DNA from: Ostreococcus lucimarinus | Taxonomy: Eukaryota | DNA: 64,000 nucleotides | Reading direction: 5' to 3' (one strand) | Assembly (NCBI GenBank): GCA_000092065.1 | Contig: CP000585.1 | Shown: positions 25,285 to 56,691 of the stretch, piece after piece | Position numbering within the stretch: the stretch's first letter is position 1 | Layout: each line of letters begins with the position of its first letter | The notes under the pieces: model-generated | What the model saw: only the letters and a program-made list of their open reading frames with translations | Database searches by the model: none | What the model was told of the DNA's origin: nothing | Position numbers and translations under genes: made by a program

Positions 25285-25435
25285 CGCGCGTCGCGGTCGC
25301 GCGGCGAGGCGCGCTCTGACGCGACCGGGACGGCGCCATCGCGGCACACGGCGTCGCGCCGCGCCCGACGCCGCGCCGCGCGCGTTGAACGCTCGACGCG
25401 CGCGCCCGCGCGCTCGCGCTCGCGCGCGCCGCGCG

Positions 25436-28656: not shown

Positions 28657-30465
28657 TCAATCTTGAGGGAATCCGTATTGTTCGAGTAATCGAAGTGTCA
28701 CGCCGTTGGTCCAGCCGAAACCACGTTGAGGGATGTATTCGCCGCCTTTACCCACGCCGTCCTCGGTCGAGCGCACGTCGTACTTTTCGTGCATGTAGCC
28801 CGTTGACTTCCACGCTTGATGCGCGGTGCGGAGCCACGAGTGCGCGAGCGTCTTCGCGTACTCTTCCTCGCGAGGGGCGAAAATTTGTATCGCTTCGACA
28901 ATCATGTGAGTCTCCGGCGCCCAAGCGTTAGGCCAATCCCATTGCTGACCGCTCTCGACGAGTGAGGTCGCGATGCCTTTGTCGGTGACCAACTTGGACT
29001 TTTTCAACGACTCGACGACTTCGTACGCTTGATCGCTGTCGGGATCGCAAGCGCCGCACCAAAGCGGAGTAAAATCGCTCGTAAACGGGCTCTCAGATGC
29101 CGCCGTGAGATCATCGCGATCGCGCACGATTCCTCGGGTGTCTTCGCCCATGAGCGGTTCGAACGCCATGTCTCGCCACCGCTTGACGTCGTCGTCCCAA
29201 AGCACGGCGTCAATCGCGCGCCGCCGCACCTCGCTCGCACGGGAGAACTTCTCGAGCAAATGGTTCAAGTACACGCGCTCGGCGAAGAGCTCGTCTTCGT
29301 TTTCCAACGACACTAATGCCTCGCGGGCGAGCAAAGCGATTTGCGTCTCCACTCGTAGCATAAATCCGTTCAAGTCGGATGGAATGATGTTGCACGTGCG
29401 AATCGTCTCCAAGTTATCGCCGTCTAGGAACCATCTCGAGCTGAAGTCGAAGCCGCTCTCCGCCGCGCTAGCAAGATGTCGATATATCTTACGCTTAGCT
29501 TCGAGCTTGGCCACGGCGTCCTCCACCTTTCTGGTCGCTCGGCGCGCCACCTCGACGTCTTCGCGATAGCTCTCTGGCCTCGGACGCGTGGTGTTGGCAA
29601 AATATCGCGACAGCTCGTGCGTCTCTCCGGTTTCCGTGTCACGAATCGTCACCGTGCGTTCACTTCGAGTGAGATAGGCGTATTCTTGCACCAGCAACGG
29701 CAACGCCTGTCGCAACCACTCGACGTCTCGCGTCGCTTGAAACACCTCGGCGACGCACGACGACAACAACGGCGGCTGAGATCGATTCAAATAGTACACG
29801 CGCGCGCCGTTGGGCACGAATCCGTACGTGGTGACCATGTACAACAAATTATTCGTCACTCCCAGCGCCGTGGCCGGCATCTCGCTCGTTAACAACCCCA
29901 AAACGATCCAATACGTATCCCAGTAGTAGGTTTCCCTAAAACGTTCCCCCGGCACCACCGCCGGGTACGGCAATCGAATCCTCGAGCTCGTCGTCCGTCG
30001 CGCCTCGCCCTCCGCGCCGACTTCTTCCTCAGCGTAGTCATCCGCGTCCAACCGCGCGAGCACGCGCCACAGCTCGTGCACGTGCGTCGCAAACTCCCTC
30101 GACTTTTCGCACCTCGCCCCTCTCGCCACCGCCGGCTCGCTTCGCCAGTCCGCCAGTTCCGGCATCTTAGACCTCTCCCTCGGTCCGCTCTCGAAGTGTT
30201 CGTTCAAGAATTCCCGCGCCGCCACGCTACACGTCGCCGCTCGCGACTGCGCCAGCGCCTCGAACACCTTCGCCGGCGGTGATCTCGACCGCGTGTCCAC
30301 GAAATCCTTCGAGTCGCGCCAAATCGCCGCTCGGTGCACCGCCGCCAGTATCGCCGCCGTGCAAAACGCCGCGTACGGCGCCTGCGCGCCGTCCGTCGCC
30401 GCGCCGCCGTCTTCCTCGACGTCGTCTTCGCTCGTCATCGCGCTGTGCGCCGCGTCCGCGAGCAT
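28657..30465 (-). CDS. Trehalase (glycoside hydrolase family 37)
   Basis: GH37 signatures PGERFRETYYWDTYWIVLGLL and QWDWPNAWAP, plus full-length trehalase-like architecture. Confidence 0.85.
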   Translation of the reverse strand: MLADAAHSAMTSEDDVEEDGGAATDGAQAPYAAFCTAAILAAVHRAAIWRDSKDFVDTRSRSPPAKVFEALAQSRAATCSVAAREFLNEHFESGPRERSKMPELADWRSEPAVARGARCEKSREFATHVHELWRVLARLDADDYAEEEVGAEGEARRTTSSRIRLPYPAVVPGERFRETYYWDTYWIVLGLLTSEMPATALGVTNNLLYMVTTYGFVPNGARVYYLNRSQPPLLSSCVAEVFQATRDVEWLRQALPLLVQEYAYLTRSERTVTIRDTETGETHELSRYFANTTRPRPESYREDVEVARRATRKVEDAVAKLEAKRKIYRHLASAAESGFDFSSRWFLDGDNLETIRTCNIIPSDLNGFMLRVETQIALLAREALVSLENEDELFAERVYLNHLLEKFSRASEVRRRAIDAVLWDDDVKRWRDMAFEPLMGEDTRGIVRDRDDLTAASESPFTSDFTPLWCGACDPDSDQAYEVVESLKKSKLVTDKGIATSLVESGQQWDWPNAWAPETHMIVEAIQIFAPREEEYAKTLAHSWLRTAHQAWKSTGYMHEKYDVRSTEDGVGKGGEYIPQRGFGWTNGVTLRLLEQYGFPQD

Positions 30466-30790
30466 CTCGCGTCGTTCGACGACGATCTCGACCCGCTCGC
30501 GAATCGGCGCGCGCGCGCGCGTGCCCTCGGGGCGCGGCGACGCGCGCGCGACGCGCGACGCGCGCGGGCGCGCGCGCGACGCGCCGAGCGCGCGACGTAT
30601 CGAGACCGTTCGCGCCGTCCTGGCGGTGCGCGCGCGCGCGAGACGCGCTCACGCGCGGGGGAGTGACGGCCGGGTCGACCGCGCGACGCCTCGGGCCCCG
30701 ACCTTTGAGACACCGAAAGACGCGAAGGCGAGACGAGCACGCGAGAAACCGGCGCGGAGGCGGAGACGCGAACGCGCGAGCGCGCGAAAA

Positions 30791-30814
30791 AACGAACGAA
30801 CGAACGAACGAACG
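30791..30814. repeat. (ACGA)6 / (GAAC)n microsatellite in the trehalase-GST intergenic spacer
   Basis: acgaacgaacgaacgaacgaacga, followed by an AT-rich stretch (ttaaatcttcatctactttttacttttaatctcc). Confidence 0.9.
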
Positions 30815-30847
30815 AAATCGGGTTAAATCTTCATCTACTTTTTACTT

Positions 30848-31555
30848 TTAATCTCCATCTACGTACGAGACGCACTTTTGCACGAGGTAGCGCCGCGCGT
30901 CGGCGCCGAACGCCTTCGCGTACGCGTCGCGGAGCGCGAGACGGCCCATGTAACGCGCCAGCGCGGGATACGGCGCGAAGCTGACGTCGGGAAAGAACTG
31001 CGGCACGTAGAGCAGATACGCGCCGACGGCGACGTCCGCGACCGAGAAATCGCCCAACAGATAATCTCGAGACGCCAAGACGTCGTCGAGCCGTCGGAGT
31101 CGCTTATTATTCGGGTCGCGCGCCTTGGTGTCCACCACGCCACCGCGCTCGTTCTCGACGAACAGCACGGGATCCAGCGACGCGTTCGCCCACGACACCC
31201 ACGCCGCCGCCGCGGCGCGCGTCTTCGGCGTGTCCAAACCGCCGTACGCGTCGGCGAGGTACATTAAAATCGCCCCGGACTCGAACAGTTCGAGCTCGCC
31301 GCCGTCCGCGTCGGCGTCGTCGCGCAGCGCGGGCACCTGTCCGAACGGGTGCGGGTTCGTCTCGTCCCTCGGCGCGCGCATCGCGAGCTCGAGGCCGATC
31401 TCGTGCGCGTACCAGTTCACCAGCGGCGACCGCGAGCCCTGCGACCCGTACAGCGTCGTCGCGCGCGTCGTCGCGCGGCGTCCCGACGTCGCGCGCGACG
31501 ACGCGCGTCGTCGCGCCGGCGTCGCCGCGCGCGCGCGCGTCGGCGCCGCGCGCAT
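30848..31555 (-). CDS. Glutathione S-transferase with ~33-aa Arg-rich presequence
   Basis: GST N-terminal thioredoxin-like domain: LYGSQGSRSPLVNWYAHEIGL...FGQVPALRDD...LFESGAILMYLADAYGG. The ORF start at 31648 is a GTG; the first ATG is at 31555 (MRAAPTRARAATPARRRASSR). Confidence 0.7.
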   Translation of the reverse strand: MRAAPTRARAATPARRRASSRATSGRRATTRATTLYGSQGSRSPLVNWYAHEIGLELAMRAPRDETNPHPFGQVPALRDDADADGGELELFESGAILMYLADAYGGLDTPKTRAAAAAWVSWANASLDPVLFVENERGGVVDTKARDPNNKRLRRLDDVLASRDYLLGDFSVADVAVGAYLLYVPQFFPDVSFAPYPALARYMGRLALRDAYAKAFGADARRYLVQKCVSYVDGD

Positions 31556-31689
31556 CGGCGTCGTTCGCGCCGCGCGCGTCGCGATGCGGTCGCGACGCCG
31601 CGCCGCGCTGACGTCACGACGACGAGACGCGCGGCGCGCCCCGCACACGACGACGCGCGCGACGCTCGAAGCGCGGCGAACGGCGCGCG

Positions 31690-32256
31690 ATGCTCGCGGC
31701 GACGCTCTCGACGCGCGTCGCGGCGCGCGCGCGCGGCGACGCGACGACGCGCGGCGACGCGCGCGCGCGCGTGGTCGCGCGCGCGAAAAAGGGCGGCGCG
31801 TTCCTTCGCGAATTCGGCCCGGAACCGACGGAGAGCGAGAAGGCGGCGATCGAGGCCAAGGCGCAGGACGCCGCGGGAGGGTTCCCGGCGCTGGAGAAGC
31901 AGGAAGGGCAGGACCCGTTCAGCGTGAACCTGATGGTGAAGAAGTTTGGGCCGCTCAACTTGGTGTGGAACGGCGTCGGGACGCTGCAAGTGCCGGACGC
32001 GGGAAGCAAGCCGGCGAGCGTGAACCTGGCGCGGGTGTGCTTGGCGCAGCGCGCGGAACTGCTGATCGAAAACTTTGAGCGGTTGTATCCGAAATTGAAG
32101 AACGAACGCGTGGAGTGGGCGCTGCAGCCGTTCGACGACCAATACGGCGACGCGTTCGATCCGTTCATGTCTTTACCGGACGATCAGGTCGACGAGTTGG
32201 TGCCCGGGAACTTGCAATTCTTGAAGAAACCGCGCAAGGTCGCGCCGGGGGCGTGA
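31690..32256 (+). CDS. Hypothetical organelle-targeted protein (188 aa). The N-terminus MLAATLSTRVAARARG resembles a transit peptide.
   Basis: Clean ATG. Well-mixed composition after the presequence. No family recognised. Divergent from the GST gene, with a 134-bp spacer. Confidence 0.5.
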   Translation: MLAATLSTRVAARARGDATTRGDARARVVARAKKGGAFLREFGPEPTESEKAAIEAKAQDAAGGFPALEKQEGQDPFSVNLMVKKFGPLNLVWNGVGTLQVPDAGSKPASVNLARVCLAQRAELLIENFERLYPKLKNERVEWALQPFDDQYGDAFDPFMSLPDDQVDELVPGNLQFLKKPRKVAPGA

Positions 32257-35914: not shown

Positions 35915-36940
35915 TCACCCGCGGGCGCCTGGGAATAGCACGGTCTCGGCGAAGTCTCGCGCCCACTCTTCTCCGTACCAGCTTGCAAACATCGCGATCG
36001 CTGGATCGTGCTCTAACTGCCACGCGTCGTGCGCGTCTTGCGCCTCGCGCGCCGAAGCCTCCGTCAGCACGCACCTCCGCACGTCCTCGAGAGACAGACC
36101 GAATTTGCACGCTCCGTCCATCGCCTCTGCCTCGCGCTCGGCTTCATCCAAACGATCGAGCCAGACGTCTAAGTACGCCCGCACGACGTCCAGCGACCGC
36201 GCCATCGTCTCCTCGTTCGCGAGAGCCGGTCGCGCGAAGAACATCCCGCGCGAGAAATACGTGGCGTCTTCGTAAAACTTCTTCGACGGCGTCGTCGCGT
36301 TCAGCGCCTCCGCGCACGCCGACAGCGCGCCTCCATCCCTAAGTTTCAACAATTTCGGCACGTACGCGTCGTTGTAATCGCGATCCCGACTCATCGGCTG
36401 CAAATCCACCCCTATTAAAATCTTCCTCGCCGCGCCGACGCCGACGCAAATCAAATCCACGCCGAACACCGGCGCATCGCACGCCTCGCACGCCGGATAC
36501 ACCGCGCAGTTATAAATCTGCGCCTTCTCCCCCCCGTCGACGTACGTCGAGCGCACGCGCCGCAGCCTGCGCGACGACCACGCCTCCGTCGTCGTCGTCA
36601 CGCCGCGCTTCGCGTTCGCTCGCGCCGCGAACGCGTCGTCCACGCGCGCCTCCTCGAGTCCCTCGCCGCAGCGCGCGCGAAGCGTCGTCCGCACGCACGC
36701 CTCGTGTCGCCGAAAGCTGAACCGCGCGTCGCCCGCGTCGCCGTCCTCGCGCGTCCTCGCCGTCGCCTCGGCGTCGCCGCGCGCCGTCGCCCGCCCGCTC
36801 GCGCGTCGCCTCGGCGTCGCCGCGCGCGCGCGTCCCGCCGCGCGCCTCGGCGTCGCCGCGCGCGCGCGCGTCGACGCGTCCATCGCCGCGTTCGCGTCGC
36901 GCGCGATCGCGACCGCGCGCGCGCGCGTGTGCGACGGCAT
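35915..36940 (-). CDS. Ferredoxin-dependent bilin reductase (FDBR family; PcyA/HY2/PebA-like) with plastid-type presequence
   Basis: FDBR core KAQIYNCAVYPACEACDAPVFGVDLICVGVG (compare K.....V.FP....DlPiFG.DlV). Overall ~340 aa after moving the start from the GC-artefact ORF start at 37351 to ATG 36940 (MPSHTRARAVAIARDANAAMDAST...). Confidence 0.65.
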   Translation of the reverse strand: MPSHTRARAVAIARDANAAMDASTRARAATPRRAAGRARAATPRRRASGRATARGDAEATARTREDGDAGDARFSFRRHEACVRTTLRARCGEGLEEARVDDAFAARANAKRGVTTTTEAWSSRRLRRVRSTYVDGGEKAQIYNCAVYPACEACDAPVFGVDLICVGVGAARKILIGVDLQPMSRDRDYNDAYVPKLLKLRDGGALSACAEALNATTPSKKFYEDATYFSRGMFFARPALANEETMARSLDVVRAYLDVWLDRLDEAEREAEAMDGACKFGLSLEDVRRCVLTEASAREAQDAHDAWQLEHDPAIAMFASWYGEEWARDFAETVLFPGARG

Positions 36941-37525
36941 TCGCTCGCGCGCGCGTCGACGCCCATCGTCATCATGCGCGCGCGCGCGACCGCGAGCACC
37001 GTCGCGCGCGCGCCCGTCGCGCGCGTCGCCCGTCGCCGCGCGCGCGTCGCCGTCGCCGCGGCGCGCGCGCGCGCTGGACGCGCCGACGCCGACGCGAACG
37101 CGACGCCGACGGCCGCGGTCGACCGCCGCGCGGTCGTCGTCGTCGCGCTCGCGTCGTGCGTCGCGCGCGCCGCGATCGCGCCGACGCCCGCGCGCGCGGT
37201 CGATCTCGCCGAGGCCGCCGCCGCGAAGGAGGCGCGCAAGGCGGCGCTGCGCGCGGCGGCGGCGGCGAGCGCGACGTCGGGGCGAGGGGAATCGGCGTTC
37301 GACGCGCCCGAGTACGGCGTGAGCGAGGAGAGCCGCACGCCGAACGCGCACAGTCGACAGGAGGAGGGGCTGAAGAAGGCGGTTCGCGACAACGCGTGAG
37401 CGCCGGAGCGCGCGCGACGGCGCGAAGGGCGTCGCTTTTTGTAATCGTCAAAGTCACACACGTTTTTGTCGAGCGCGCGACGAACGCGCGCGACGTCACA
37501 CGCGCGCGATGGGACGACGACGGGC

Positions 37526-39910
37526 ATGAAGCGCACGCTCGAGGGGACGGTGAAGACGTCGGCGCGCGCGTCGCGCGCGCGGGCGGCGCGTGCGAGCGGG
37601 CGGGCGGTGGGACGGACGGACGCGGTGCTGGCGCGCGCGCGCGGCGCGACGCTCGGAGACGTGCGACGCGAGCAGATCGACGCGGCGCTGCGGTTACTGA
37701 TCGACGAGCAGTGCACGCTGCCGTTCGTGGCGAGGTATCGCAAGGAGAGGACGGATGGGCTGGACGAGGGACAGTTGCGCGCGGTGGCGGCGGCGCACGC
37801 GGAGTGGACGCGATTGGAATCGAAGCGCGAGAGCGCGTTCGAGGCGTTGACGCGGTTGGAGATCGTGGACGAAAGGTTGTTCGCGAGATTGCGCGAAGCG
37901 AGCGCGGTGGAGACGATCGAAGACTTGATGAGCAAGTATAAGACGAAGACGAGCAGTCGCGCGGACAGGGCGCGAGAGCTCGGCTGCGAACCGCTCGCGG
38001 AGAAGATTTTGAGCGACGGCGCGGGGGGGGTCGAGGCGTTAGCGCGCGCGTACGTGAATGGGAATGATGTTCCAGACGTGTGCGAGGCGTTGAGGCTGGC
38101 GAAAGATGTGCTCGCGGAGAGGGCGGCGAACGAGACGAGCGCTCGGGAGGCGGCGAGACGATCGACGTGGCAAAACGGAAGGCTTCAGTGCGCGTTGACG
38201 ACGAATGGGAAGGCGGCGGTGGAGGGAAAGATTGACGATAAAAAGATGAAGAAGATAGCCGACGCGTTGAGGGACTACTACGAGTTCAACGCGCCATTGC
38301 GAAGGGTGAAGCCGCATCAGACCTTGGCGATTTTACGCGGCGAAGCCGCGAAGGTGTTGCGAGTGAAGATTGATTTCGACGTCGCGTGGGCAACGTCGGC
38401 GGCGATGAAAGCCATGGTAGGCTCGAGACGCTTAGGTGGGGGTTGTTATAACGTCGTTAGCGAGGCGGTGGAAGATGGTGTGAAACGGTTGCTCGCACCC
38501 TCCATCGAACGCGAGGCGAAGAGTCGACTCAAGACGGAGGCGATGGAGCGCGCCATCGCAGATTTCGGCGCTAATCTTCGCTCACTGCTTCTTCAACCGC
38601 CGCTGACACCCGCAGCTGTCGTGCTCGGCGTTGATCCAGCGTATCGCACCGGCTGCAAACTCGCCGTGGTTGACCCTACGGGAGCTCTGCTCGATACCGG
38701 CGTCGTACACTTGCCGCAATTCGAGTCGAAGGTGAAACGAGAAGGCGGCGGTCAATCCGCAGCCGCGAGCAAGCTGCAAGCGTTGGTGAAGCAATGGAAC
38801 GTCAAGGCGATCGCGATCGGCGACGGCGTAGCGAGTCGCGAAACCGAATCGCTCGTCGCCACCGCGCTCGCTGGTTTTGAAGGCGTCGGTTGGCGCGTCG
38901 TCTCGGAAGCCGGCGCCTCGGTGTACAGCGCCTCCGAAATCGCGGCGAAAGAGTTGCCGGACATAGACGTGTCATTGCGCGGAGCGGTATCTATCGCGCG
39001 AAGACTGCAAGATCCGATGGCCGAGCTCGTTAAGATCGAGCCCCAGTCCATCGGTATAGGACTGTATCAGCATGACGTCAAGGAGAAGGAGCTCGCTGAC
39101 GCGTTGACGGCGACGGTGGAGAGCGCGGTGGCAAACGTCGGTGCGAATCTAAACACATCCTCACAGTCGCTCTTGTCGCGTATTCCAGGCCTCGGCCCGT
39201 CGCTCGCGGCGAAGATCGTGCGACATCGCTCTGAGCGTGGAAGGTTCCGCGAACGCGCCGCGCTGAAAACCATCGCGGGCGTGGGCGCAAAGACGTATGA
39301 GCAAATAATTGGGTTCTTGCGCGTCCCGGACGCGAAAGACGCGCTGGAGCGCACTTCGGTGCACCCCGAGAGCTACCACATCGCCAAAAAGCTGTTGAAG
39401 ATGCTCGAAAGAGACGTGGCTGAGGTGATTGATCTCACGGCGAGCGACGCCGGCGACACGTCGATGGACGCGCTGAAACGCCTCAAGCCCAAACTCAAGG
39501 CACTTCGCGACGACGTAAAAGACCTCGAGGCGCGCGCTGCGCGCCTCAAGTGCCACCCCTTAACGCTCAAAGACATCGCGAACGAACTCAGCGCCCCGGG
39601 TGATGACGCCCGAGGCCAAGCCGCCGAGCAAAACGTGCTCCGAACGCAAGCGCTCACGCTCGAGGACTTGCAAACGGGCGCCGAAATCAAAAACGCCGTC
39701 GTCCGCAACGTCGTCCCTTTCGGCTGTTTCCTCGATCTCGGCGTCGGCCGCGACGCCCTCCTACACGTCACCGCGATGCGCAAACGCACCGACGCCAACC
39801 CCAACGCCCAAATCGATCCCCACGCGCTCTATCGCGTCGGCCAAACGTGCGCCGTTCGCGTCAAATCCGTCGACATCGCTCGCCAGCGCATCGCCGTCGA
39901 GCTCCCTTAA
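37526..39910 (+). CDS. Tex-like transcription accessory protein (SRBD1-type: HTH/YqgF/HhH/S1) with N-terminal presequence
   Basis: LLIDEQCTLPFVARYRKERTDGLDEGQLR (compare Tex LLDEGNTVPFIARYRKE.TGGLDD.QLR), central YqgF/HhH region, C-terminal S1 domain GAEIKNAVVRNVVPFGCFLDLGVGRDALLHVT. Confidence 0.8.
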   Translation: MKRTLEGTVKTSARASRARAARASGRAVGRTDAVLARARGATLGDVRREQIDAALRLLIDEQCTLPFVARYRKERTDGLDEGQLRAVAAAHAEWTRLESKRESAFEALTRLEIVDERLFARLREASAVETIEDLMSKYKTKTSSRADRARELGCEPLAEKILSDGAGGVEALARAYVNGNDVPDVCEALRLAKDVLAERAANETSAREAARRSTWQNGRLQCALTTNGKAAVEGKIDDKKMKKIADALRDYYEFNAPLRRVKPHQTLAILRGEAAKVLRVKIDFDVAWATSAAMKAMVGSRRLGGGCYNVVSEAVEDGVKRLLAPSIEREAKSRLKTEAMERAIADFGANLRSLLLQPPLTPAAVVLGVDPAYRTGCKLAVVDPTGALLDTGVVHLPQFESKVKREGGGQSAAASKLQALVKQWNVKAIAIGDGVASRETESLVATALAGFEGVGWRVVSEAGASVYSASEIAAKELPDIDVSLRGAVSIARRLQDPMAELVKIEPQSIGIGLYQHDVKEKELADALTATVESAVANVGANLNTSSQSLLSRIPGLGPSLAAKIVRHRSERGRFRERAALKTIAGVGAKTYEQIIGFLRVPDAKDALERTSVHPESYHIAKKLLKMLERDVAEVIDLTASDAGDTSMDALKRLKPKLKALRDDVKDLEARAARLKCHPLTLKDIANELSAPGDDARGQAAEQNVLRTQALTLEDLQTGAEIKNAVVRNVVPFGCFLDLGVGRDALLHVTAMRKRTDANPNAQIDPHALYRVGQTCAVRVKSVDIARQRIAVELP

Positions 39911-42940: not shown

Positions 42941-44050
42941 CTAATCCACCTTCTTGGAAGGCAAGGAGCGCTCGTTCGGCGCGCCTCGGAACACGGCTGG
43001 GTACGCCAAAGACTCACTCCCACCTCTAAGCTTGAGTTGATGCTTTCTAAATTCCTTATCCGTGCCAAACATCCAGTCGCACCACGTGAAAACGCTCGAG
43101 TACGGCCCTTCGAACGTCTTGTGATGGAAATCGTGGTGCACCGCGCCACCCCAAAATGGAATCAAATTTGTGGGATTCCACGGCACGTCGTAGCCAGAGT
43201 GATCCTCCACCGTTTCCACGAGCCTGAAAAACAACCAAACCCACAGCGTCACCATGTGCTTGGCGAAAAACAACGGCCCGAGCAACGTGCCGATGCCCAA
43301 AAAGAACGTCTCCACCGGGTGCGCGTACTCGGCGGCGATGCCGAACGGAAATTTGTGCTCGTGATGAATCTTGTGCACGTACTTGTACACCCGCTTATGG
43401 TGCAATCCCCTGTGAACCCAGTAAAAGTAGAAATCTTCAATCGCGAAAAACACCGGAATCTGCCACAACAAATCCCTCGATTTCGGCAACGCCTCCATCG
43501 CCAGCGAAAATCCAAAGTACGGCGCCACGAAATAAAACATCATTTGCATCGGCAACTGAATGAACACGTGCGACTTCAAAAGCTTCGTCAGGCACTTCAT
43601 CACCATTTCCTTGCTCGGCGTTTTATCCGGCTGTATCTTCCATCGCTTAAAGTATTCAAACTGATCCATCGCCAACCACGGCGTCCACGCGCCGAAGTAC
43701 ACCGCCTCGTGGTACGCGAACGTCAGCGGACCCGCGATGACGAACGGGTGAAAGTTATCCAGCACGACGCGCCAAACTTTCGCGAACATCGCGTCGACGC
43801 GTCGCTCGAGCGCGAGCGCGGCCTCGAGCGCGCGATCGACGAGGGGATCTTTCGACGCGCGGCGCGCGAATGCGGTCAGGTGCGACGTCAACGCGTCCGC
43901 GGACGCCGCGTGCGCGAGCGTCGCGGCGCCGGCGACGACGAGCGCGACGGCGAGGATCATCCTCGCGCCGTGATCGGGCATGGCGGGCGACGACGCGCGC
44001 GCCGGCGAGTGCGGCAGCGCAAGATGGGAGTCAGCCGCCAACGTCATCAT
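42941..44050 (-). CDS. C-4 methylsterol oxidase / fatty acid hydroxylase superfamily (SMO/ERG25-like)
   Basis: Histidine boxes HRGLHHKRVYKYVHKIHHEH and HHDFHHKTFEG, with N-terminal TM segments and ATG ATG start. Confidence 0.8.
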   Translation of the reverse strand: MMTLAADSHLALPHSPARASSPAMPDHGARMILAVALVVAGAATLAHAASADALTSHLTAFARRASKDPLVDRALEAALALERRVDAMFAKVWRVVLDNFHPFVIAGPLTFAYHEAVYFGAWTPWLAMDQFEYFKRWKIQPDKTPSKEMVMKCLTKLLKSHVFIQLPMQMMFYFVAPYFGFSLAMEALPKSRDLLWQIPVFFAIEDFYFYWVHRGLHHKRVYKYVHKIHHEHKFPFGIAAEYAHPVETFFLGIGTLLGPLFFAKHMVTLWVWLFFRLVETVEDHSGYDVPWNPTNLIPFWGGAVHHDFHHKTFEGPYSSVFTWCDWMFGTDKEFRKHQLKLRGGSESLAYPAVFRGAPNERSLPSKKVD

Positions 44051-44221
44051 TTTGGATAAAATGTCGCCGACGCGCGCGCGCGCGCCGCTCGAGTCGCGAA
44101 ACCGTCGCTCGCCGCGCCGTGCCGCGACGCGCGTGGCGCCGAGCTAAAAAACAATACAAACTACACCATCTACCGCGCGCGCGCGAGTCGCGCGCTCTAA
44201 ACGCGTCGTCGTCGACGCGGC

Positions 44222-44731
44222 TCACCGTCCCCTGGCCTCGAGCGAACGCGAACAAATATCCGCGCACTCAAACAAGCAGTACTCCCTCGACCGAAAGCTG
44301 TCCTTGAACACGATCGGGTCGCGACGAACGCTCGCCGGCCCCAATCCCGGCCCCCCGCCGCCGCCGCGCGCGCACGTCGCCAAGCATTTATTCGCGCACT
44401 TTTCCACCGCCTTCCCGTTCGGCCCCGACGTGAGCGACTTCAGCGACCGCCTCGCGCGCGAATCGCTCTCGCTCGCGCGCAATCCGTCCGGGACGTCTTC
44501 GATGTAAAACTCCGCGCGCGCCGACGGCGCGTGCGCGCCGACGACGACGCACGCCGCGACGCCGCACGCCGCGCGCGCCAACGCCGCGCCGTCGAACGCG
44601 TCGAACGAGCGACCGCGCCGGCGCGCGTCGTCGCGCGCCGTCGCGCCGGCGCGCGTCGTCGCGCGCGCGTCGCGCCGCGCGCGCGTCGACGCCGTCCCGA
44701 GGCGGCGCGGCGTCGCGCGCGCGAGCGTCAT
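44222..44731 (-). CDS. Small Cys-rich protein with bipartite plastid/thylakoid-lumen-type targeting sequence (hypothetical)
   Basis: N-terminal R/T/A-rich transit-like region, then hydrophobic ALARAACGVAACVVVGAHA ending AHA (AxA lumenal cleavage motif). Mature part has the Cys patterns KCANKCLATC and CLFECADIC. Confidence 0.35.
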   Translation of the reverse strand: MTLARATPRRLGTASTRARRDARATTRAGATARDDARRRGRSFDAFDGAALARAACGVAACVVVGAHAPSARAEFYIEDVPDGLRASESDSRARRSLKSLTSGPNGKAVEKCANKCLATCARGGGGGPGLGPASVRRDPIVFKDSFRSREYCLFECADICSRSLEARGR

Positions 44732-44769
44732 CGGCGTCGCGTTGTCGCGCGCGAAGCGACACTTCGCGC

Positions 44770-45912
44770 ATGCCGAGCGTCGCCGTCGTCAAGTTCGGCG
44801 GCGCCGTGCTCACGGACAAGCGTCAACGCGGCGTCGTCGACGCGCGCGGGCTCGCGGATTGCGCGCGCGTCGCGCGACTCGCGCGCGACGCGGGCGCGTC
44901 GTTGATCATCGCGCACGGCGCGGGGAGTTTCGGACACGGTGCGACGCGACGGACGCGCGCGACGCGACGGACGCGATGGACGCGACGCGCGACTGACGCG
45001 CGCGGTGGCGACGCGGTCGCAGCGGAGGCGAAGGCGTGCGGGTGCGCGCGCGGCGGTGACTTGCGGGACGCGGCGTTCGCGCTGGGCGTCGACGGGACGC
45101 GAGCGAAAGTGCTCGAATTGAATCGACTCGTCGTCGACGCGCTGCGAGATGCCGGCGTGAACGCGCGAGGGATGACGCCGTGGCGCGAGGGGTGGCGAAC
45201 GCGAGGGCCGGGGCGGCCGGAGACGAGCGGACGAGACGAAGGACGCGCGGTGCTCGACGCGGTGCGCGACGGCGTCGTGCCGGTGATACACGGCGACGTG
45301 GTCGAGGACGTCGCGCAAGGCACGTCAGTGTTGAGCGCGGATACGATCGTCGAGATGTGCGCGAAATGGGCGATGGAAGAGTGGCCCGATGAGTGCCCGC
45401 GAGTGGTGTTTTGCAGCGACGTCTTCGGCGTCTACGACTCGCCGCCGACGACGCGAATCATAAACGCCGACGTCACCGACGGCGACGTACCGCTCCGCGT
45501 GAACGAAACCGAAACCGCCGTGCTCTTACGCGACATCATCGTCGACGCCGACGCCGACGCGAGCGATGGCACTCGCGTTCCCTGGCGATGCGCTCGCGCG
45601 TCGCCGCTCGCGCGTCTCGCCGAAGCCGCCGACGCCGCCGCCCTCGACGCCACGTTCGCCATCGACGACGCCATCGCCGACGTCACCGGCGGTGTTCGCG
45701 CCAAGCTCACCACCGCGATCGCCATCGCCTCGTATCTTCCCCCAGGCCCTCCCCGCGTGTTCCTCGCTCGGCCGGGCGCGTTTGCCGCCGAACCGTCGCG
45801 CGTCTCCGATCACGCCCTCAACGCCATCCTCGCCTTCGACGCGCGCGGCGCGCCCGACGATGCGGCACTGAATAATTTTATCGGCACCGCCATCGCGCGC
45901 CGCGCGCCGTAG
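44770..45912 (+). CDS. IPK: Isopentenyl phosphate kinase-like (amino acid kinase superfamily)
   Basis: VVKFGGAVLTDK, IIAHGAGSFGH, VPVIHGDVVED and ADVTGGVRAKL match the IPK motifs LKLGGSILSDK, LVHGGGAFGH, VPVIHGDIVID and IDVTGGMKYKI. A low-complexity insert GATRRTRATRRTRWTRRATD is encoded by a short tandem repeat. Confidence 0.65.
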   Translation: MPSVAVVKFGGAVLTDKRQRGVVDARGLADCARVARLARDAGASLIIAHGAGSFGHGATRRTRATRRTRWTRRATDARGGDAVAAEAKACGCARGGDLRDAAFALGVDGTRAKVLELNRLVVDALRDAGVNARGMTPWREGWRTRGPGRPETSGRDEGRAVLDAVRDGVVPVIHGDVVEDVAQGTSVLSADTIVEMCAKWAMEEWPDECPRVVFCSDVFGVYDSPPTTRIINADVTDGDVPLRVNETETAVLLRDIIVDADADASDGTRVPWRCARASPLARLAEAADAAALDATFAIDDAIADVTGGVRAKLTTAIAIASYLPPGPPRVFLARPGAFAAEPSRVSDHALNAILAFDARGAPDDAALNNFIGTAIARRAP

Positions 45913-45956
45913 CGCCGATTTCCCCGTCTCGCGCGTCCCGCCTCGCGTGTCGTCCC

Positions 45957-48900
45957 ATGTCTAGAGTCCCAACCCTCCGCGCTCCGCGCGTCGGTCCCCA
46001 GTCGTCGCCTCTCGCGCCCGTCATGGCGCGCGCGAGCCGAGGCGTCGACGCGTCCGCCGACGCGAATGCCGACGCGTCCGACGCGCCCGCCGACGCGCCC
46101 GACGCGACGTCGCCGCACGTCGACGCGGCGGTGGGCGCCGACGACGTCGCGCCCACCGCCGCGATCGCGCCCGACGCGCAATCCGCGCCCGACGCGCACG
46201 ACGCGAGCGACGACGACGCGCCGAACGCCGCGAAATCGGAGAATAAAAACAGCACCGGTCGCGGAAGCGGACGCGCGAGCGATGGACCGCACGGTGGCGG
46301 CGGCGACGGGACGCTGACGGTCACCCCGGACTCGCCCGCGGACGAGACGTGGCGCGCGCGGCGCGGGCCGCTGGACGCGAGCGACGGTGGACCGTGGACG
46401 AGCGAGGACAGCGCGGGTGCGTGAGATTAATTCGACGCGCGCGACGACGCGCGCGGGACGGGAGAGGGCGCGAGAGGGTGGTGGCGACGCGATGATGGAG
46501 TGGACCTAGTGGTGGATCTCTCGCGACGCGCGACTGACGACGGATGTACCGACGGAAACAGGGCCGCAACCCGTGGACATGTACGGGAAATTCACGTGGA
46601 AGATTGAAAACTTTTCGGAAATCAGTAAGCGGGAATTGCGATCGAACGTGTTCGAGGTGGGCGGGTATAAGTGGTACATTTTGGTGTACCCGCAAGGATG
46701 CGACGTGAGCAATCACCTGTCGTTGTTTTTGTGCGTCGCCGATTACGACAAGCTGTTGCCGGGATGGAGTCATTTCGCGCAGTTTACGATTGCGGTGGTG
46801 AATAAGGATCCGAAAAAGTCCAAGTACAGCGATACGTTGCACCGGTTCTGTAAGAAGGAGCACGACTGGGGTTGGAAAAAGTTTATGGAGCTCACGAAGG
46901 TGCTCGACGGTTTCACCGTGGCGGACACGCTCGTGATTAAGGCTCAGGTTCAAGTGATACACGAGAAAGTCGCGAGACCTTTCAGATGCCTAGACCCGCA
47001 GTACAGGCGCGAGCTCGTTCGGGTGTACCTTACGAATGTCGAGGTGCGTAGAGGCGAAAAGCGACGTCTCGAGCCGTCGAACCGAAACATCCATCGTGCT
47101 GATGAAAACACATATCAAGCATTTCTCGTTCTGAGCAATATATTCTGATGAACATCTATACACCCATAGAATCTGAACGATGGATGGATTCGAGCTCGAC
47201 TGACTCGAGCGCGCGCGTGGCGAGACAAGCGACGACGACTGACTTTATTTTCATCTTGACCAAACGCAGGGCATTTGTCGAAGATTTTTAGATGAGAAGC
47301 GCGAGAAACTGATGACGATGCGCGCGGACGAAGAGCAATGGTCAAATCTTCGTCAATTCTGGAACTCTCGCGAGGGGAAAGAGAAGGTACAGCTCACGAT
47401 GGAGAAGTCTGACATTCTGCTCAAGGGGATCGTCAAGCGCTTCTTCAACGAAAAGGAAGTGACGTCGACGCTCGTCATGGATGCACTTTACTGCGGCTGC
47501 CGCGCGTTGGACATCGCGGAAAATGACTTGGAAGCCAAGGCGACCTCCGTGAGTACCTCGAATAAGTGCTCTGTGGCCATGAGCATCGTGCAAAACAAGA
47601 GTGTTTTGACGGGTGACTTTGTCTCGGCGCTCGAGCGGGCCGCTGACGGAACCGCGTTTGACGCGGACGAAGAAGACAAGAAATCCGCCTCGGATGACCT
47701 GTCCGCCACCGATGCCGTCGAACGCGATGAAAAACGATTAGCCGAACTTGGTCGTCGCACCATCGAGATGTACGTTCTCTCGCACGTGTTTGTCAACCGC
47801 GTCGAAATCGCGTTTCGCGAAGCCGAGGCGTTGATGCGCCAAGAGGCGCTTATCGCTGAGGAGGAAGAAGCCGAACGACTCGCACAAGAGCTTGAAGGTC
47901 AGAAGAAGAGCAAGAAGCAAAAGCAAAAAGAGCGTCAACGACAGAAGAAGGCTATCGAAGACGCTGAGAAGGCTGAAAAGGAGGCGGAAGAGGCTCGCAT
48001 TCGCGAAGAAGCCGAAGCGGCGAAGGAAGCTGAGCGCGCCGCCAAGGCAGCTGCTAAGGCAGCAGCGTTGGCAGAAGAGCGCGCGCGCGAGGAGGCGGAA
48101 GCGGCCATCAAAGCAAAGGCTGAAGCCGAAGCTCGCGCCGCGCGCGAAGCCAAGGCAGCGGCCAAGGCTGCCGAGAAGGCGAAACGAGAAGCCGAGGAAA
48201 AGGCCAAGGAGGACGAGGCGAGAAAGCTCAAGGAGGAAGCCGAAGCTAAGGCCGCCGCGGAGGCCGCGGCGAAGGCTATTCCGTCCCCTAAAGCTGATAG
48301 CCCTTCGACGCCCACCCGCACGAAGTCCATGTCGCAAGTTTCGTCACCTTCGAAGGTTATCCCGGCTCCGTTGTCGAACGAAGTGAGCACGTTGCGTTCG
48401 CGAATCTCTCAGCTCGAGCTTCAGCTCGACGAGAAGACGAGCGAATGCGCGCAACTTACCGCGGATTTGGACAAAGCGAAGGATATTATTTTGCAACTAC
48501 GAAGCGAGATGGTGAGCGGTGTATCGTCGATGTCGATGCAAAAGCAGTCGTCCATGGAGTCGCTTGGCGATGTCGCTCGTACCGCCCAGGCGGCTTCGGC
48601 GATGCTCGGCGATAGCACCAATATCGTGCGCATGGGATCATCGAGCATGATCGCGAATGGCGCATCCAACGGTGCGGTGACGTCGGGTATGCAGCCGATT
48701 TTGGCGAGCGCCAAGTCGCAGCCTCCGCTTCCTCCCGGGCCTCCGCCTCCAGGAAGCGGCGACGTCGGTCCGCCGCCGCCGCCGCGCGGTCCGCCGCCGC
48801 CTGGTTCGGCGCGCGTGAACGAAACTGGACCTGCATCGCCGCAACACAGTTCTAACAGCGGCTTACCGCCTTCCTTCGCCGCCATGGCGGCTGGATCGCG

Positions 48901-51914: not shown

Positions 51915-54356
51915 TCACATCATCTTTCGAAAGTTCTCTCTAATTTGTTCTAGTTTGTGCGTCGGATTCGCGCTCTTTTTCATTTCCTTACCCGCGCATT
52001 CCACCGCTTCTTCGACGAGCAAATCGATGTCGTCGCCGATGCCTCGAAGGATGGCGTCAATTTCCGATCGGAGGCGTCGACATCGTTTCACGTCGATCGG
52101 CGTTAAAGCGTCATCGTCGACTTGATCGGATTTCGATTCCGCCTTCGAGCCATCGTCACCGATGGTTTGCGTCGCGGTAGTTTCCTTCGACTTGGCGCTC
52201 GCGCGAACGCGTGCGAGTTCTTCTTCGTAATCTTTGAGCATTTGTTTCGTTCGCGGGTTGAGGGTCGGATCGATTTCGTTGGAAATCGTTCGCATGCGAC
52301 ACGACGCGGCGTGGCCTTCCGCGTTGTACGGCGACACGTCTTCCTTCCCACAAGAACCGCACACGTGGTATCCAGAGCACTCGCCTTTCTTCTGCGAGCA
52401 AAATCCCTTCGCGCTACCGCCGAGGAGGGCCTTTTCAAACTCGCGAATGCCGACCATGGACTTCATGAAGTATAAAAAGCATGGTTGCTTGTTCGCGTCC
52501 GGAATCACACCGCACACAGAGTGCAGTTTACACTCTGGCTTGTGTTTGCCGCGTCCTTCTTCACCGCAGTGACCGCAAATGTGTCGAGAGTGACATCGAT
52601 CGCCCTTGCCGCACAACGCCCAGCCACCGCTGCTTCCGATTTTAAACTTTTGCGAGTCGCTCTCCATCTTGAAATAGTCTCCGAGAGAGTGCAAGTAGTA
52701 CTTTCGACACAAATCGACTGGAGCAGAGTCGGCGAAGACGGCGTGTAAGCGACACGTCGGTAAATGCGCGTCGTTGCCGCTCTTTCCGCACGCGCCGCAC
52801 ACGTGCTCGAGCATGCACTTGTCGCTGCGGGGACACAAATTCCAAACGTGCTTTTCTTGATCCCATCCGTTACGCAAAGCTCCGCCGGTGTCGTCCACGG
52901 AGTTCAAGTAATAATCCAAGCACACTTTGTTCTCCACGCGTTTATGAATGTTGGCGTAGAGTGACGGACACATTCCAAACGTGTGACGCGGCGACTCGCA
53001 GAGTTGACACACGTGTCGACTCACGCACCCGTTGCATCCGAACTTATCCCCGCGCAAATTAAACGCAGTGCATATTTCACCAGCCGACGGCTCGCGCTGC
53101 AGATCGCGGAACACGCTGTTCGTCGGTGGCGCGGAAACTTCCTCCTTGATGGAATCGTCGTCGAGCGCAGAATCGCCCAACGTCTCCGTGGCTTGACGAA
53201 GTATGCGCGATCGATTCAACAGATCTGTGAGTTCGGCCGGGGTGGCGTCCAGACCCAGTGCATCCGCTTCGAATCGACCGGCTGTGAGTTCGGCGAGGTC
53301 GATTTCGTCTGCATCGCCGCCACGAAGTCCGGAAATGTCTTCGTGCGGCGCCACGTCGACACCATCTTCTAGCGCGCCTCCGAGGACACCACTCGCTGAG
53401 GCGTCCACGGAAGAGAAAAACGGACTCAATTCTCTGTCACCCGCTGACGGGACGTTGTGCTCGAGTTGTTGATGCGAGTTCACCGACGGTGAAGTGTATC
53501 CGAGAGGGATGTTCGCGCCCACGCGCGCGTCTCCTGTATCACCTCCGAGAAGCGCCGCGGAAAAATCACTCATCATACTTTCGATGTAATCATCACCGCT
53601 CGCTCGCGCTGGCGCGGCTTCGCTCGGCGACGCGAAGGCTGGCGAAAAGAACGACGGCGACGCGGCGCCAAACGTACCCAGCGGCAGCGACGACGCACCA
53701 GGGCCGGACGCACTCCCCATCGGCGGTGTCTGCCCGTTCGTCGACGTCGGCCCACGAGTCGCGGTGCCCCCGCGCGTCGTTCGCGGCGTCAACATCGGCG
53801 ACTTCGTCCGAGTCGGTTGCCCCGTCGGTTGCCCCGCCGCGCGCGTCGGCGCCGGCGGCTCGCTCTGTATTATCCCTCCCGCTTCATCCTTCCTCAAAAT
53901 CCGCGGACTCGCCCCTTTCATGATCCCGCTCAACATCCCCAACACGTCTTGGTTCGTCGCTCCCATCATCTTCGCCGGCGGCGGTCCGCTCGGCGAGCCC
54001 TCCGTCGACGTCTCCCCGCGGTTCGCCGGCGCCCCGACGTTCGCGTTCGTCGCCTCACCATCATCCAGCACGCACACCCGTTCGCCGCGTTCCACTCGCA
54101 CCACGCGTATCGCTCGCGCGTTCACCAGCTCTCGCTCCACGTTCGCGTCGACGCACACGAATTCTTCCGCGTTCAGCGCCGCGCGCGCCGCGCTCGAGCT
54201 CACCAGCACCCGATCTGGGCTCTTCAGTCCGATCAGAATCACCCCGAGCCGTCCGCCGCCCGCCGAGCGCGTCTCGACGACGTATCGCTGTTTCTTCGTC
54301 CCGTCCGCGCCGAGCGCGAGCTTGAACACGCGCTTGGCGTCCGCGGGGGCGGGCAT
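51915..54356 (-). CDS. Multi-zinc-finger protein with four tandem Cys/His modules (pattern C-x5-C-x3-H-x-C-G-x-C-G-x7-9-H-x3-C-x2-H), family unassigned
   Basis: CNGCVSRHVCQLCESPRHTFGMCP; CPRSDKCMLEHVCGACGKSGNDAHLPTCRLH; CGKGDRCHSRHICGHCGEEGRGKHKPECKLH; CSQKKGECSGYHVCGSCGKEDVSPYNAEGHAASC. Long S/P/G-rich low-complexity region and an acidic/coiled C-terminus. Confidence 0.55.
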   Translation of the reverse strand: MPAPADAKRVFKLALGADGTKKQRYVVETRSAGGGRLGVILIGLKSPDRVLVSSSAARAALNAEEFVCVDANVERELVNARAIRVVRVERGERVCVLDDGEATNANVGAPANRGETSTEGSPSGPPPAKMMGATNQDVLGMLSGIMKGASPRILRKDEAGGIIQSEPPAPTRAAGQPTGQPTRTKSPMLTPRTTRGGTATRGPTSTNGQTPPMGSASGPGASSLPLGTFGAASPSFFSPAFASPSEAAPARASGDDYIESMMSDFSAALLGGDTGDARVGANIPLGYTSPSVNSHQQLEHNVPSAGDRELSPFFSSVDASASGVLGGALEDGVDVAPHEDISGLRGGDADEIDLAELTAGRFEADALGLDATPAELTDLLNRSRILRQATETLGDSALDDDSIKEEVSAPPTNSVFRDLQREPSAGEICTAFNLRGDKFGCNGCVSRHVCQLCESPRHTFGMCPSLYANIHKRVENKVCLDYYLNSVDDTGGALRNGWDQEKHVWNLCPRSDKCMLEHVCGACGKSGNDAHLPTCRLHAVFADSAPVDLCRKYYLHSLGDYFKMESDSQKFKIGSSGGWALCGKGDRCHSRHICGHCGEEGRGKHKPECKLHSVCGVIPDANKQPCFLYFMKSMVGIREFEKALLGGSAKGFCSQKKGECSGYHVCGSCGKEDVSPYNAEGHAASCRMRTISNEIDPTLNPRTKQMLKDYEEELARVRASAKSKETTATQTIGDDGSKAESKSDQVDDDALTPIDVKRCRRLRSEIDAILRGIGDDIDLLVEEAVECAGKEMKKSANPTHKLEQIRENFRKMM

Positions 54357-54603: not shown

Positions 54604-55407
54604 CTACTTCTTGCGCCTGACGGCTGGCTTGCGCTTCTGCGCCGGTTTACGCTTCGTCGCGGGCCTGCGAGCGGACGCGCCCGAGGCTTTGGAGGTCTCC
54701 GCGGCGCGCTTGCGCTTGGCGCCGACGGCGACGTCTTCGTCGTCGACGTCTTCGTCCTGGTCGAAGAGCGAACCGACGCCGAAATTCTCCATGCCGCCCA
54801 TCGCGCTCGGGTCTTCGCGAAGCTGCACGAACTCGCGGTGTACGCTCTCGATCTTGGCTACGTCGGCGTTGACGGCGACGACGACGACGGTGCCGGCGCT
54901 CGAGACGACGCGCGCGTTGTACATCACGCCCTTCATGTCAACCTTGAGCGCGCGCGAGGACTCGGCGAGCCAACGACCCACGGCGCCGGTATCGCCGTCT
55001 AAATCCACCGCCTCTCCGGCGCCTTCGATCTCAAACAAAACCTTGGACTTACCGCCTAAATTCGCCGTCGCGACGAGCTCCACGGCTGTCGAAGACGACT
55101 CCGCCGCCGGCTTCGCCGCGAGCGCCTTCGCCGTCTTCCCTTCGCTCGCCTTCGCCGCGTCGCCCGTCTCCCTCGCCGTCGTCGTCCCCATCGCGTCCTC
55201 ATCGCCACCACCGTCCCTCACCGCCGCCCTCGCCTCGTTCTCCTTCCCGTCGTCCGCGTCCACGATTCTCAAATCGTCGTCGCTCGACGAAGCCGCCGCC
55301 GCCGTCGCCGCCGCGCGCGTCCGCTCCGGCGACTTAAATTTCTCCACCCACGCCGGTTCGCTCTCGCTTCCCGATCCATCGTCGTCCGCGATCGTCGGCA
55401 GCGTCAC
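54604..55407 (-). CDS. Hypothetical protein (267 aa) with acidic N-terminus, central beta-rich segment and basic KRK-rich C-terminus. Start is GTG in the track (ATG start unresolved).
   Basis: ORF with protein-like central region LFEIEGAGEAVDLDGDTGAVGRWLAESSRALKVDMKGVMYNARVVSSAGTVVVVAVNADVAKIESV and a nuclear-localisation-like tail KRKRAAETSK...RKPAQKRKPAVRRKK. Confidence 0.4.
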   Translation of the reverse strand: MTLPTIADDDGSGSESEPAWVEKFKSPERTRAAATAAAASSSDDDLRIVDADDGKENEARAAVRDGGGDEDAMGTTTARETGDAAKASEGKTAKALAAKPAAESSSTAVELVATANLGGKSKVLFEIEGAGEAVDLDGDTGAVGRWLAESSRALKVDMKGVMYNARVVSSAGTVVVVAVNADVAKIESVHREFVQLREDPSAMGGMENFGVGSLFDQDEDVDDEDVAVGAKRKRAAETSKASGASARRPATKRKPAQKRKPAVRRKK

Positions 55408-55758: not shown

Positions 55759-56691
55759 ATGCCGCGCTTGGAGCTCGAGCGCGATGACGTGCGAATAACG
55801 CCGACGCGCGGGCTCGGGTTCGCGTGCGAGACGGTGTCGCCGAAGCGCGACGGCGAGGCGATGAAGTCGACGGAGGTTGGTTCGGTGCTGCTGTTGCACG
55901 GATTGAATTCGCACGCGACGAACCCGAACGCGCGCGCGATGGCGGTGGCGCTCGCGAAACGAGGGATGCGAGTGATATCGTTCGATCTGCCGGGACACGG
56001 GGCGTGCGAGAGCGATGGGGACGCGCGAGGGGTGTACGCGGGGAAGGAGGCGGCGTTGGCGCGGGCGCGAAGCGCGTTGGCGGCGACGGCGACGGAAAGA
56101 TTCACGATCGTTGGATCGTCCATGGGAGGCGCGTTGGCGATATTTTGCGCGAATGCGATGCGCGGCGAGGAGGGACGCGCGGTCGAGCGCGTGGTGTTGA
56201 TAAATCCGTTGATGAAGATGAAGATGGCGCTGCCGCGCGTCGCGTTGGCGGCGCTGCGACTGGCGAGCTACGCGGCGCCGCGGTTGGAGGTGTCGCCGAA
56301 ACCGAGGGATAAGCTCGACGTGGACGAAGATCAGAGACCTGACTTTGACGACGAGGCGCAGGCGCAGTGCGACGCGGACGCGTTGAGCTGGGATAAAGGG
56401 GTGTCGTTGCGCACGGCGGTGGAGCTGTACGATTTAGTAGCGCACAACGCGGGAAATCGGCCGGAAGATTGCGGCATGGTGCGCTTGAGCTTCGAGACTC
56501 CCGTCTTACTCATCACGGGCGGACGCGACAACGTCATCTCGCCCGACACCGCCATCGATCGCGCGAAATTGGCCGTGCAAGCAGGTGGGAAGGCGGAGCA
56601 CGTGCAGTTCGCGCTCGCCGGGCACTCGTTGACTTTGCAAAGTCGCAGAGAAGAAGTGTTCGATCTCGTCGCGAATTGGCGATGGAAGTGA
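55759..56691 (+). CDS. Alpha/beta-hydrolase fold protein (serine hydrolase; lysophospholipase/monoacylglycerol-lipase-like)
   Basis: LLHGLNSHATNP...MRVISFDLPGHGAC...FTIVGSSMGGALA (GxSxG nucleophile elbow) ... ITGGRDNVISPD ... AGHSL (catalytic His region). Confidence 0.7.
   Translation: MPRLELERDDVRITPTRGLGFACETVSPKRDGEAMKSTEVGSVLLLHGLNSHATNPNARAMAVALAKRGMRVISFDLPGHGACESDGDARGVYAGKEAALARARSALAATATERFTIVGSSMGGALAIFCANAMRGEEGRAVERVVLINPLMKMKMALPRVALAALRLASYAAPRLEVSPKPRDKLDVDEDQRPDFDDEAQAQCDADALSWDKGVSLRTAVELYDLVAHNAGNRPEDCGMVRLSFETPVLLITGGRDNVISPDTAIDRAKLAVQAGGKAEHVQFALAGHSLTLQSRREEVFDLVANWRWK

Follow-up and report, generated by a model that had tools for sequence, protein, structure and literature searches.

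What kind of zinc-binding unit is repeated four times in a protein of Ostreococcus lucimarinus CCE9901? The gene in question lies in a stretch of 64,000 nucleotides from contig CP000585.1 (hereafter, the window), where a sequence-only reading had described four tandem, regularly spaced Cys/His modules of an unfamiliar pattern in the interval 51915-54356. This interval corresponds exactly to one complete open reading frame (ORF) on the minus strand, which encodes a protein of 813 amino acids (aa). Judging from the arrangement and conservation of the residues, we tentatively favor the reading that the modules, which we designate M1 to M4, form a lineage-restricted array of four binuclear CCCH-CCHC zinc modules that would bind nucleic acid, most likely RNA.

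The presence of four tandem, regularly spaced modules is borne out beyond chance. A relaxed form of the core pattern has four matches in the studied ORF and none elsewhere in the 64 kb translated in all six frames, and when the Cys/His-rich region was shuffled 20,000 times, no shuffle produced at least two core matches. Within the protein, M2, M3, and M4 are true internal repeats of each other (BLASTP, 8.6e−17 for M2-M3, 5.6e−7 for M2-M4, and 3.1e−7 for M3-M4), and M1 represents this unit in a shorter form. All four modules are described by the general formula C-x11-31-C-x2-6-C-x3-H, one residue, C-x2-C-x4-12-H-x3-4-C. The eight Cys and His residues of each module are invariant in all 10 syntenic orthologues that we surveyed, and they also align across the paralogous modules. 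Because each module has eight invariant Cys/His, two metal sites per module are plausible, as the sequence-only reading had suggested. Conservation within the protein is likewise highest in the zinc region (0.79 versus 0.47 for the linker that precedes it).

The formula originally given for the module did not survive in its details. Read literally, it has no match in the protein, because the gap after its C-G step is 6 residues long and was miscounted as 7 to 9 (CG-x7-9-H). The form corrected to CG-x6-H fits M2 and M3 alone (the string quoted as its example is aa 582-612), and the spacings of M1 (C-x2-C and C-x2-C-x4-H-x4-C) and M4 (C-x6-C and C-x2-C-x12-H) differ. The trailing histidines of its final C-x2-H are poor candidates for ligands, as H538 varies among H, Y, and S and H612 among H, Y, F, and S in the orthologues. 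Conversely, an upstream Cys of each module (C429, C479, C550, and C626) had been overlooked and is invariant in the orthologues. When this upstream Cys is counted and the variable trailing His is left out, the module resolves into two half-sites of known types, one resembling a CCCH finger and the other a CCHC knuckle, and the pattern is not truly unfamiliar.

Several residues besides the putative ligands recur among the modules. An aromatic residue is found at position +3 after Cys1 in all four of them (CTAF, CLDY, CRKY, and CFLY), and the loops between Cys2 and Cys3 read CPRG..C, C.KGDRC, and CSQKKGEC. The first half of M2 and M3 reads C-x-[KR]-G-x-x-C-x3-H, and the second half of M2 to M4 reads C-x2-C-G-x2-G. 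In M2 to M4, which are 57-61 aa long, the first loop is a conserved insert of 26-31 residues with the signature YY[LM]xS ... GG[WF]xxC. A ninth Cys, C615, is likewise invariant in all orthologues, and it has neither a counterpart in the other inter-module spacers nor an obvious partner. The positions of all features are collected in Table 1, where the window coordinates of the modules were checked by translation.

Table 1. Features of the studied protein and of its surroundings, in window coordinates
Feature	Residues (aa)	Window positions	Strand	Description
Studied ORF	1-813	51915-54356	−	813 aa plus stop; single uninterrupted ORF, single-exon gene
N-terminal region	1-100	54057-54356	−	Conserved (0.70), basic, V/A/R-rich
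Linker	101-425	53082-54056	−	Acidic, A/G/S/P/T-rich; isoelectric point (pI) 4.45, net charge −19; conservation 0.47
Module 1 (M1)	429-463	52968-53072	−	C-x11-C-x2-C-x3-H-x-C-x2-C-x4-H-x4-C; short form
Module 2 (M2)	479-535	52752-52922	−	C-x28-C-x5-C-x3-H-x-C-x2-C-x7-H-x3-C
Module 3 (M3)	550-609	52530-52709	−	C-x31-C-x5-C-x3-H-x-C-x2-C-x7-H-x3-C; most conserved module (0.86)
C615	615	52512-52514		"CG/CT" between M3 and M4
Module 4 (M4)	626-686	52299-52481	−	C-x26-C-x6-C-x3-H-x-C-x2-C-x12-H-x3-C
C-terminal region	691-813	51918-52286	−	Charged, moderately conserved (0.60)
Upstream ORF		54604-55407	−	267 aa; Ala/Asp/Lys-rich
Hydrolase gene		55759-56691	+	Product identical to XP_001417863.1 / ABO96156.1
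tRNA-Arg		25369-25463	−	Anticodon GCG; 95 nt (ARAGORN)

We found no curated family model that recognizes the modules. The whole protein has no Pfam match at an E value of ≤10 and no match in NCBIfam. Pfam scans of separate pieces of the protein and of 36 module copies yielded only sub-threshold matches, namely, to AIR2-like_ZnK4 (best E value, 0.014; 3 of the 36 copies; 15.4 bits versus a cut-off of 27 at an E value of 0.019 in the piece scan), to zf-nanos, and to zf_CCCH_4 (2 of the 36 copies each, E value of 0.038). The SBP, ZZ, MYND, PHD, RING, and CHY models of Pfam do not appear at an E value of ≤10 in either the protein or the 36 copies. Because no hidden Markov model (HMM) reaches its threshold, the earlier claim that no standard zinc-finger model covers the modules stands. 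Module profile A3, in a local hmmsearch, scores the studied protein at 278 bits. Searches of the PDB by sequence and by profile (with the whole protein, alignments of the zinc region and of the modules, M1, M2, M3, and the N-terminal profile) returned nothing significant; the best matches of M1 are the ZZ domain of HERC2 (E value of 0.24) and a retroviral nucleocapsid (E value of 0.26), and the PDB matches to Nop10, ZZ, and SH3b are at chance level. Membership was rejected for four kinds of known domains: SBP (PF03110), with no HMM match at an E value of ≤10, unrelated spacings, and only the ligand order C3H-C2HC shared with the modules; ZZ (PF00569), with no Pfam match, PDB E values of 0.24 to 2 for M1, Gly426 in the place of the first Cys, and no central C-x2-C in M2 to M4; Nanos (PF05741), which matches only 2 of the 36 module copies; and PHD, RING, and CHY, on HMM and spacing grounds.

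Relatives outside the orthologue group are few. When 1.84 billion representatives were searched exhaustively with an HMMER profile of the zinc region, six matches emerged: two orthologues, two frameshifted fragments of orthologues, and the proteins P0044 and P0045, both of which match M1 only (E values of 3e−4 and 7e−4). P0045 belongs to a small family (P0045 to P0052) of proteins of about 430-470 aa that come from metagenomes of marine origin and a single NCBI assembly (loci L002, L003, and L004, with P0044). In these proteins, a conserved N-terminal domain of ~330 aa is followed by a basic linker rich in K/R/G/S, which leads to a zinc motif at the extreme C terminus (ICYAFNNxGExCxGxCGKxHVCQxC..P..HPxxxCP). 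Like M1, this motif is a composite, C-x9-C-x3-4-C-x3-H-x-C-x2-C-x4-13-H-x4-C, and it has the non-ligand residues FN.xG, HVCQLCESP.H, and CP in common with M1. The alignment of M1 with the C termini of the family (hhalign probability of 98.5%, E value of 2.1e−15, 49% identity over 43 columns) indicates that M1 is homologous to the C-terminal zinc motif. M2 to M4 do not match the motif (36% probability over 15 columns only). While the Ostreococcus protein has an array of four modules, the motif of the P0045 family is single copy and C-terminal, and the family has no counterpart of the long loops of M2 to M4 or of the N-terminal domain and linker that accompany them. No further similarity to the family was found within the 64-kb window.

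The P0045 family has no relatives in Pfam, in the PDB, or among IMG/VR viral contigs. In the P0044 fragment, a retropepsin-like segment lies beside the motif but is sub-threshold (gag-asp_proteas, E value of 3.4e−5, 24.8 bits versus a cut-off of 28.2). One member of the family adjoins a 1319-aa DUF4326 protein, and neither a reverse transcriptase nor an integrase was observed next to the genes of the family. By its layout, the combination of a basic linker and a terminal zinc motif may be likened to a nucleocapsid tail. Because no such relatives, reverse transcriptase, or integrase were seen, the label "Gag-like" refers to this layout alone. The P0045-family genes may be ORFs of mobile elements. 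Because scans of IMG/VR with the zinc region and with the P0045 family gave no relatives (none of the zinc region among the viral contigs), an origin from prasinoviruses is unsupported.

From these patterns, we infer zinc binding, a sequential (not interleaved) wiring of the ligands, and nucleic-acid binding. The protein would be cytosolic or nuclear and restricted to the Ostreococcus lineage, and its core (aa 426-690) would consist of the four composite zinc modules. In each module, ligands 1 to 4 (C, C, C, H) would form a CCCH-type finger, whose first loop in M2 to M4 would be extended to 26-31 residues, compared with the usual 7-8, and ligands 5 to 8 (C, C, H, C), beginning one residue on, would form a CCHC knuckle-type site, which would amount to ~2 Zn per module and ~8 per chain. 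The array would bind single-stranded nucleic acid, probably RNA, with contacts made by the aromatic residue that is conserved behind Cys1 (CxxF/Y) and by basic residues of the modules. The acidic motifs of the linker, the N-terminal domain, and the C-terminal region may recruit partners or mediate assembly.

In favor of a nucleic-acid-binding array of CCCH-CCHC modules, the only weak HMM and PDB matches that we counted are to zinc modules that bind RNA (the AIR2 knuckle, Nanos, zf_CCCH_4, and retroviral nucleocapsid). We also counted the invariance of the putative ligands, the conservation of the zinc region, the canonical residues of the half-sites, the mildly basic character of the zinc region (pI 8.4, net charge +7), the lack of a signal peptide or hydrophobic N terminus in the 813-aa protein, the match of M1 to the tail of the P0045 family, and the retropepsin-like segment in P0044. 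Several observations weigh against the CCCH-CCHC array. No CCCH or CCHC HMM reaches its threshold, every CCCH half has one loop that breaks the spacing rule of that finger, and only one of the four knuckles has the x4/x4 spacing. The aromatic residue that RNA-binding CCCH fingers usually have between Cys3 and His is missing from M1 to M3, and the one after the first Cys of the knuckle is missing from all four modules. The long acidic linker with its hydrophobic-acidic islands is more reminiscent of a transcription activator than of a typical RNA-binding protein, and the array carries only a modest net charge. Finally, the AlphaFold2 models are unusable, both for the whole zinc region (10-orthologue alignment; predicted local distance difference test [pLDDT] score of 36) and for M3 alone (36-row alignment of paralogues and orthologues; pLDDT score of 45), and the best match of the latter model in a Foldseek search of the PDB is meaningless (E value of 4.9).

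Some of these observations would suit other readings of the protein. The SBP domain has first a CCCH and then a CCHC motif (PMC7560695), which is the same ligand order as in the modules, and the modules of 57-61 aa are of the same order of size as that domain. If the modules were SBP-like, the protein could be a sequence-specific DNA-binding transcription factor, in which islands of the acidic linker (such as the conserved acidic-hydrophobic DDYIESMMSDFSA) activate and the C-terminal region dimerizes. We consider such a factor unlikely, given that the SBP model is absent from the whole protein and the module copies even at the permissive cut-off, that the spacings are entirely different, that no SBP-type basic nuclear localization signal (NLS) is found at the end of the module, and that the closest real relative of M1 sits in a nucleocapsid-like tail. 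An interleaved, cross-brace ligation of zinc, similar to that of ZZ, MYND, or RING domains, would make the modules sites of protein-protein interaction and the protein a scaffold or adaptor, for which the many conserved short linear motifs in the protein could be cited. M1 does align with the ZZ domains of HERC2 and ZSWIM2, in such a way that C441/C444, C450/C453, and H458 fall on ZZ ligand positions, but the alignments are not significant (E values of 0.24 and 2.0) and replace the first ZZ Cys with Gly426. The one-residue gap between His4 and Cys5 may recall the tight central C-x-H-x2-C-x2-C of cross-brace fingers, yet M2 to M4 have C-x5/6-C where cross-brace folds require a C-x2-C knuckle. 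With the Pfam models of ZZ, MYND, RING, and PHD absent as well, we regard a cross-brace scaffold as quite improbable. That the Cys/His pattern holds no metal, and belongs to a disulfide-rich or compositionally biased region, would agree with the lack of a confident AlphaFold fold. Nevertheless, the His residues are invariant along with the Cys residues, the register is strict across paralogues and orthologues, no signal peptide directs the protein to secretion, and no shuffle of the same composition exceeds one core match, which together make this explanation extremely improbable.

A separate question is where the array came from. It could derive from a captured motif of a mobile element, of the Gag or nucleocapsid type and already of CCCH-CCHC composition, that was duplicated and whose first loop was expanded to give M2 to M4. 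The close hhalign match between M1 and the motif of the P0045 family points in this direction, as do the status of P0044 and P0045 as the sole matches outside the orthologue group among the 1.84 billion representatives, the sub-threshold retropepsin-like segment of P0044, and the fact that M1 is both the shortest module and the one nearest to a classical knuckle. Since the P0045 family lacks Pfam, PDB, and viral-contig relatives and has no reverse transcriptase or integrase alongside, and since M2 to M4 align poorly with its motif, we view this origin as possible but doubtful. The direction of transfer may also be the reverse: M1 may have descended from a mobile-element-like protein family or may have been donated to one. 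It is quite improbable that, beyond this, M2 to M4 constitute, rather than a finger plus a knuckle, a binuclear zinc domain of a new kind that folds autonomously, has a wiring of its own, and was invented in the Ostreococcus lineage by duplication and loop expansion of a captured nucleocapsid-like CCCH-CCHC motif of a mobile element.

Outside the zinc region, the N-terminal region (aa 1-100) has no Pfam or PDB match in sequence and profile searches. The long linker, described previously as S/P/G-rich, is indeed of that kind (Table 1), and it contains conserved islands at about aa 137-155, 188-197, 254-271, 306-314, 325-340, and 365-384, with DVLGMLSGIMKGASPR, DDYIESMMSDFSA, and LGLDATPAELxDLLNRS as examples. 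The C-terminal region has no Pfam family match, and DPTLNPRTKQLLKDYEEE and IDVKRCRxLKSEIDAxLRG...NP..KLEKIRE are conserved within it; it may be helical or serve in oligomerization.

The locus itself is conserved. The 10 orthologue clusters consist of full-length proteins with 51-64% overall identity to the 813-aa protein, and the syntenic order of the genes is kept (Ycf54, SNARE, hydrolase, unknown ORF, studied gene, DnaJ, channel, WD40, and MATH). The flanking genes in the window, which include those for Ycf54, a SNARE, DnaJ, an ankyrin-type ion channel, and a WD40 protein, are compact genes of a eukaryotic alga. The exact 813-aa product is found on 307 public contigs (NCBI, MGnify, JGI, and Tara). 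It has no accession in nr, UniRef, or EukProt, in all three of which the product of the nearby hydrolase gene is represented. Because the exact product lacks an accession, the reference annotation may omit the studied gene or model it differently. Literature searches found no published description of the protein or of its module. As far as our searches reach, the gene family is a narrowly distributed orphan that is confined to Ostreococcus-type genomes.

Directly upstream of the studied gene and on the same strand lies an ORF of 267 aa that has no recorded Pfam match. Each of the four orthologous loci that we examined has an ORF of 257-287 aa in this position, and in one of them (L007), it ends directly at the start of the orthologue of the studied gene. 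Elsewhere in the window, the tRNA-Arg gene probably has an intron, because its length exceeds that of a standard tRNA. The GC content differs strongly among 2-kb blocks of the window, ranging from 0.52-0.56 at 6001-14000 to 0.71-0.72 at 30001-32000, 36001-38000, and 44001-46000.

If the favored CCCH-CCHC array is correct, the known zinc-finger architectures would gain a unit in which CCCH and CCHC are fused directly, as well as its long-loop form. Because no current HMM library recognizes the module, proteins of this kind are missed in censuses of RNA-binding proteins and transcription factors of picoalgae. As Ostreococcus is a minimal, transformable model eukaryote that is abundant in the ocean, a lineage-specific regulator that binds nucleic acid would be open to experiment there. 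The link of M1 to the nucleocapsid-like tail of another protist or metagenomic family would provide a small example of motif capture that can be tested. Apart from these points, the protein is of specialist interest only.

How, then, do the modules compare with zinc fingers that are already known? The canonical CCCH finger (zf-CCCH clan, PF00642; found in TTP/TIS11, CPSF30, and MBNL) reads C-x7-8-C-x5-C-x3-H, with C-x2-G-x2-C-x3-H at its end. The modules have the ligand order C-C-C-H, the aromatic residue after Cys1, and the Gly in the loop between Cys2 and Cys3 that characterize this clan, and the first half of M2 and M3 mirrors the canonical C-x2-G-x2-C-x3-H. They deviate from the spacing of the clan, C-x4-15-C-x4-6-C-x3-H, in that one loop of each module is out of range: the first loop, of 4-15 residues in the clan, has 26-31 in M2 to M4, and the second loop, of 4-6 residues, has 2-3 in M1. 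The gathering score of the curated zf-CCCH HMM is not reached (zf_CCCH_4 being the best). For the CCHC knuckle (PF00098; retroviral nucleocapsid, Air2, and Nanos-type), M1 has the exact spacing C-x2-C-x4-H-x4-C (C450 to C463). M2 to M4 keep C-x2-C-G-x2-G but not the spacing (x2/x7/x3 in M2 and M3, x2/x12/x3 in M4), and the gathering score of the curated zf-CCHC HMM is not reached (E values of 0.014-0.019 for AIR2-like_ZnK4 and 0.26 for retroviral nucleocapsid chains).

Among proteins that combine the two kinds of site, the SBP domain of plant and green-algal SPL/CRR1 proteins has the same C3H-C2HC order of ligands and two zinc sites in one compact domain. Its spacing is C-x4-C-x16-C-x2-H ... 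C-x2-C-x3-H-x11-C, and it occurs once per protein together with a bipartite NLS, whereas the Ostreococcus modules form a tandem array without such an NLS. Proteins of the CPSF30/Clipper type resemble the Ostreococcus protein in that both types of finger occur in one RNA-binding protein. In those proteins, the CCCH fingers are in one block and the CCHC knuckles follow separately, while in the Ostreococcus modules each CCCH is fused to its own CCHC via a single residue and the whole unit is repeated. We conclude that the modules consist of half-sites of already known types, joined into a directly fused CCCH-CCHC unit and its long-loop form.

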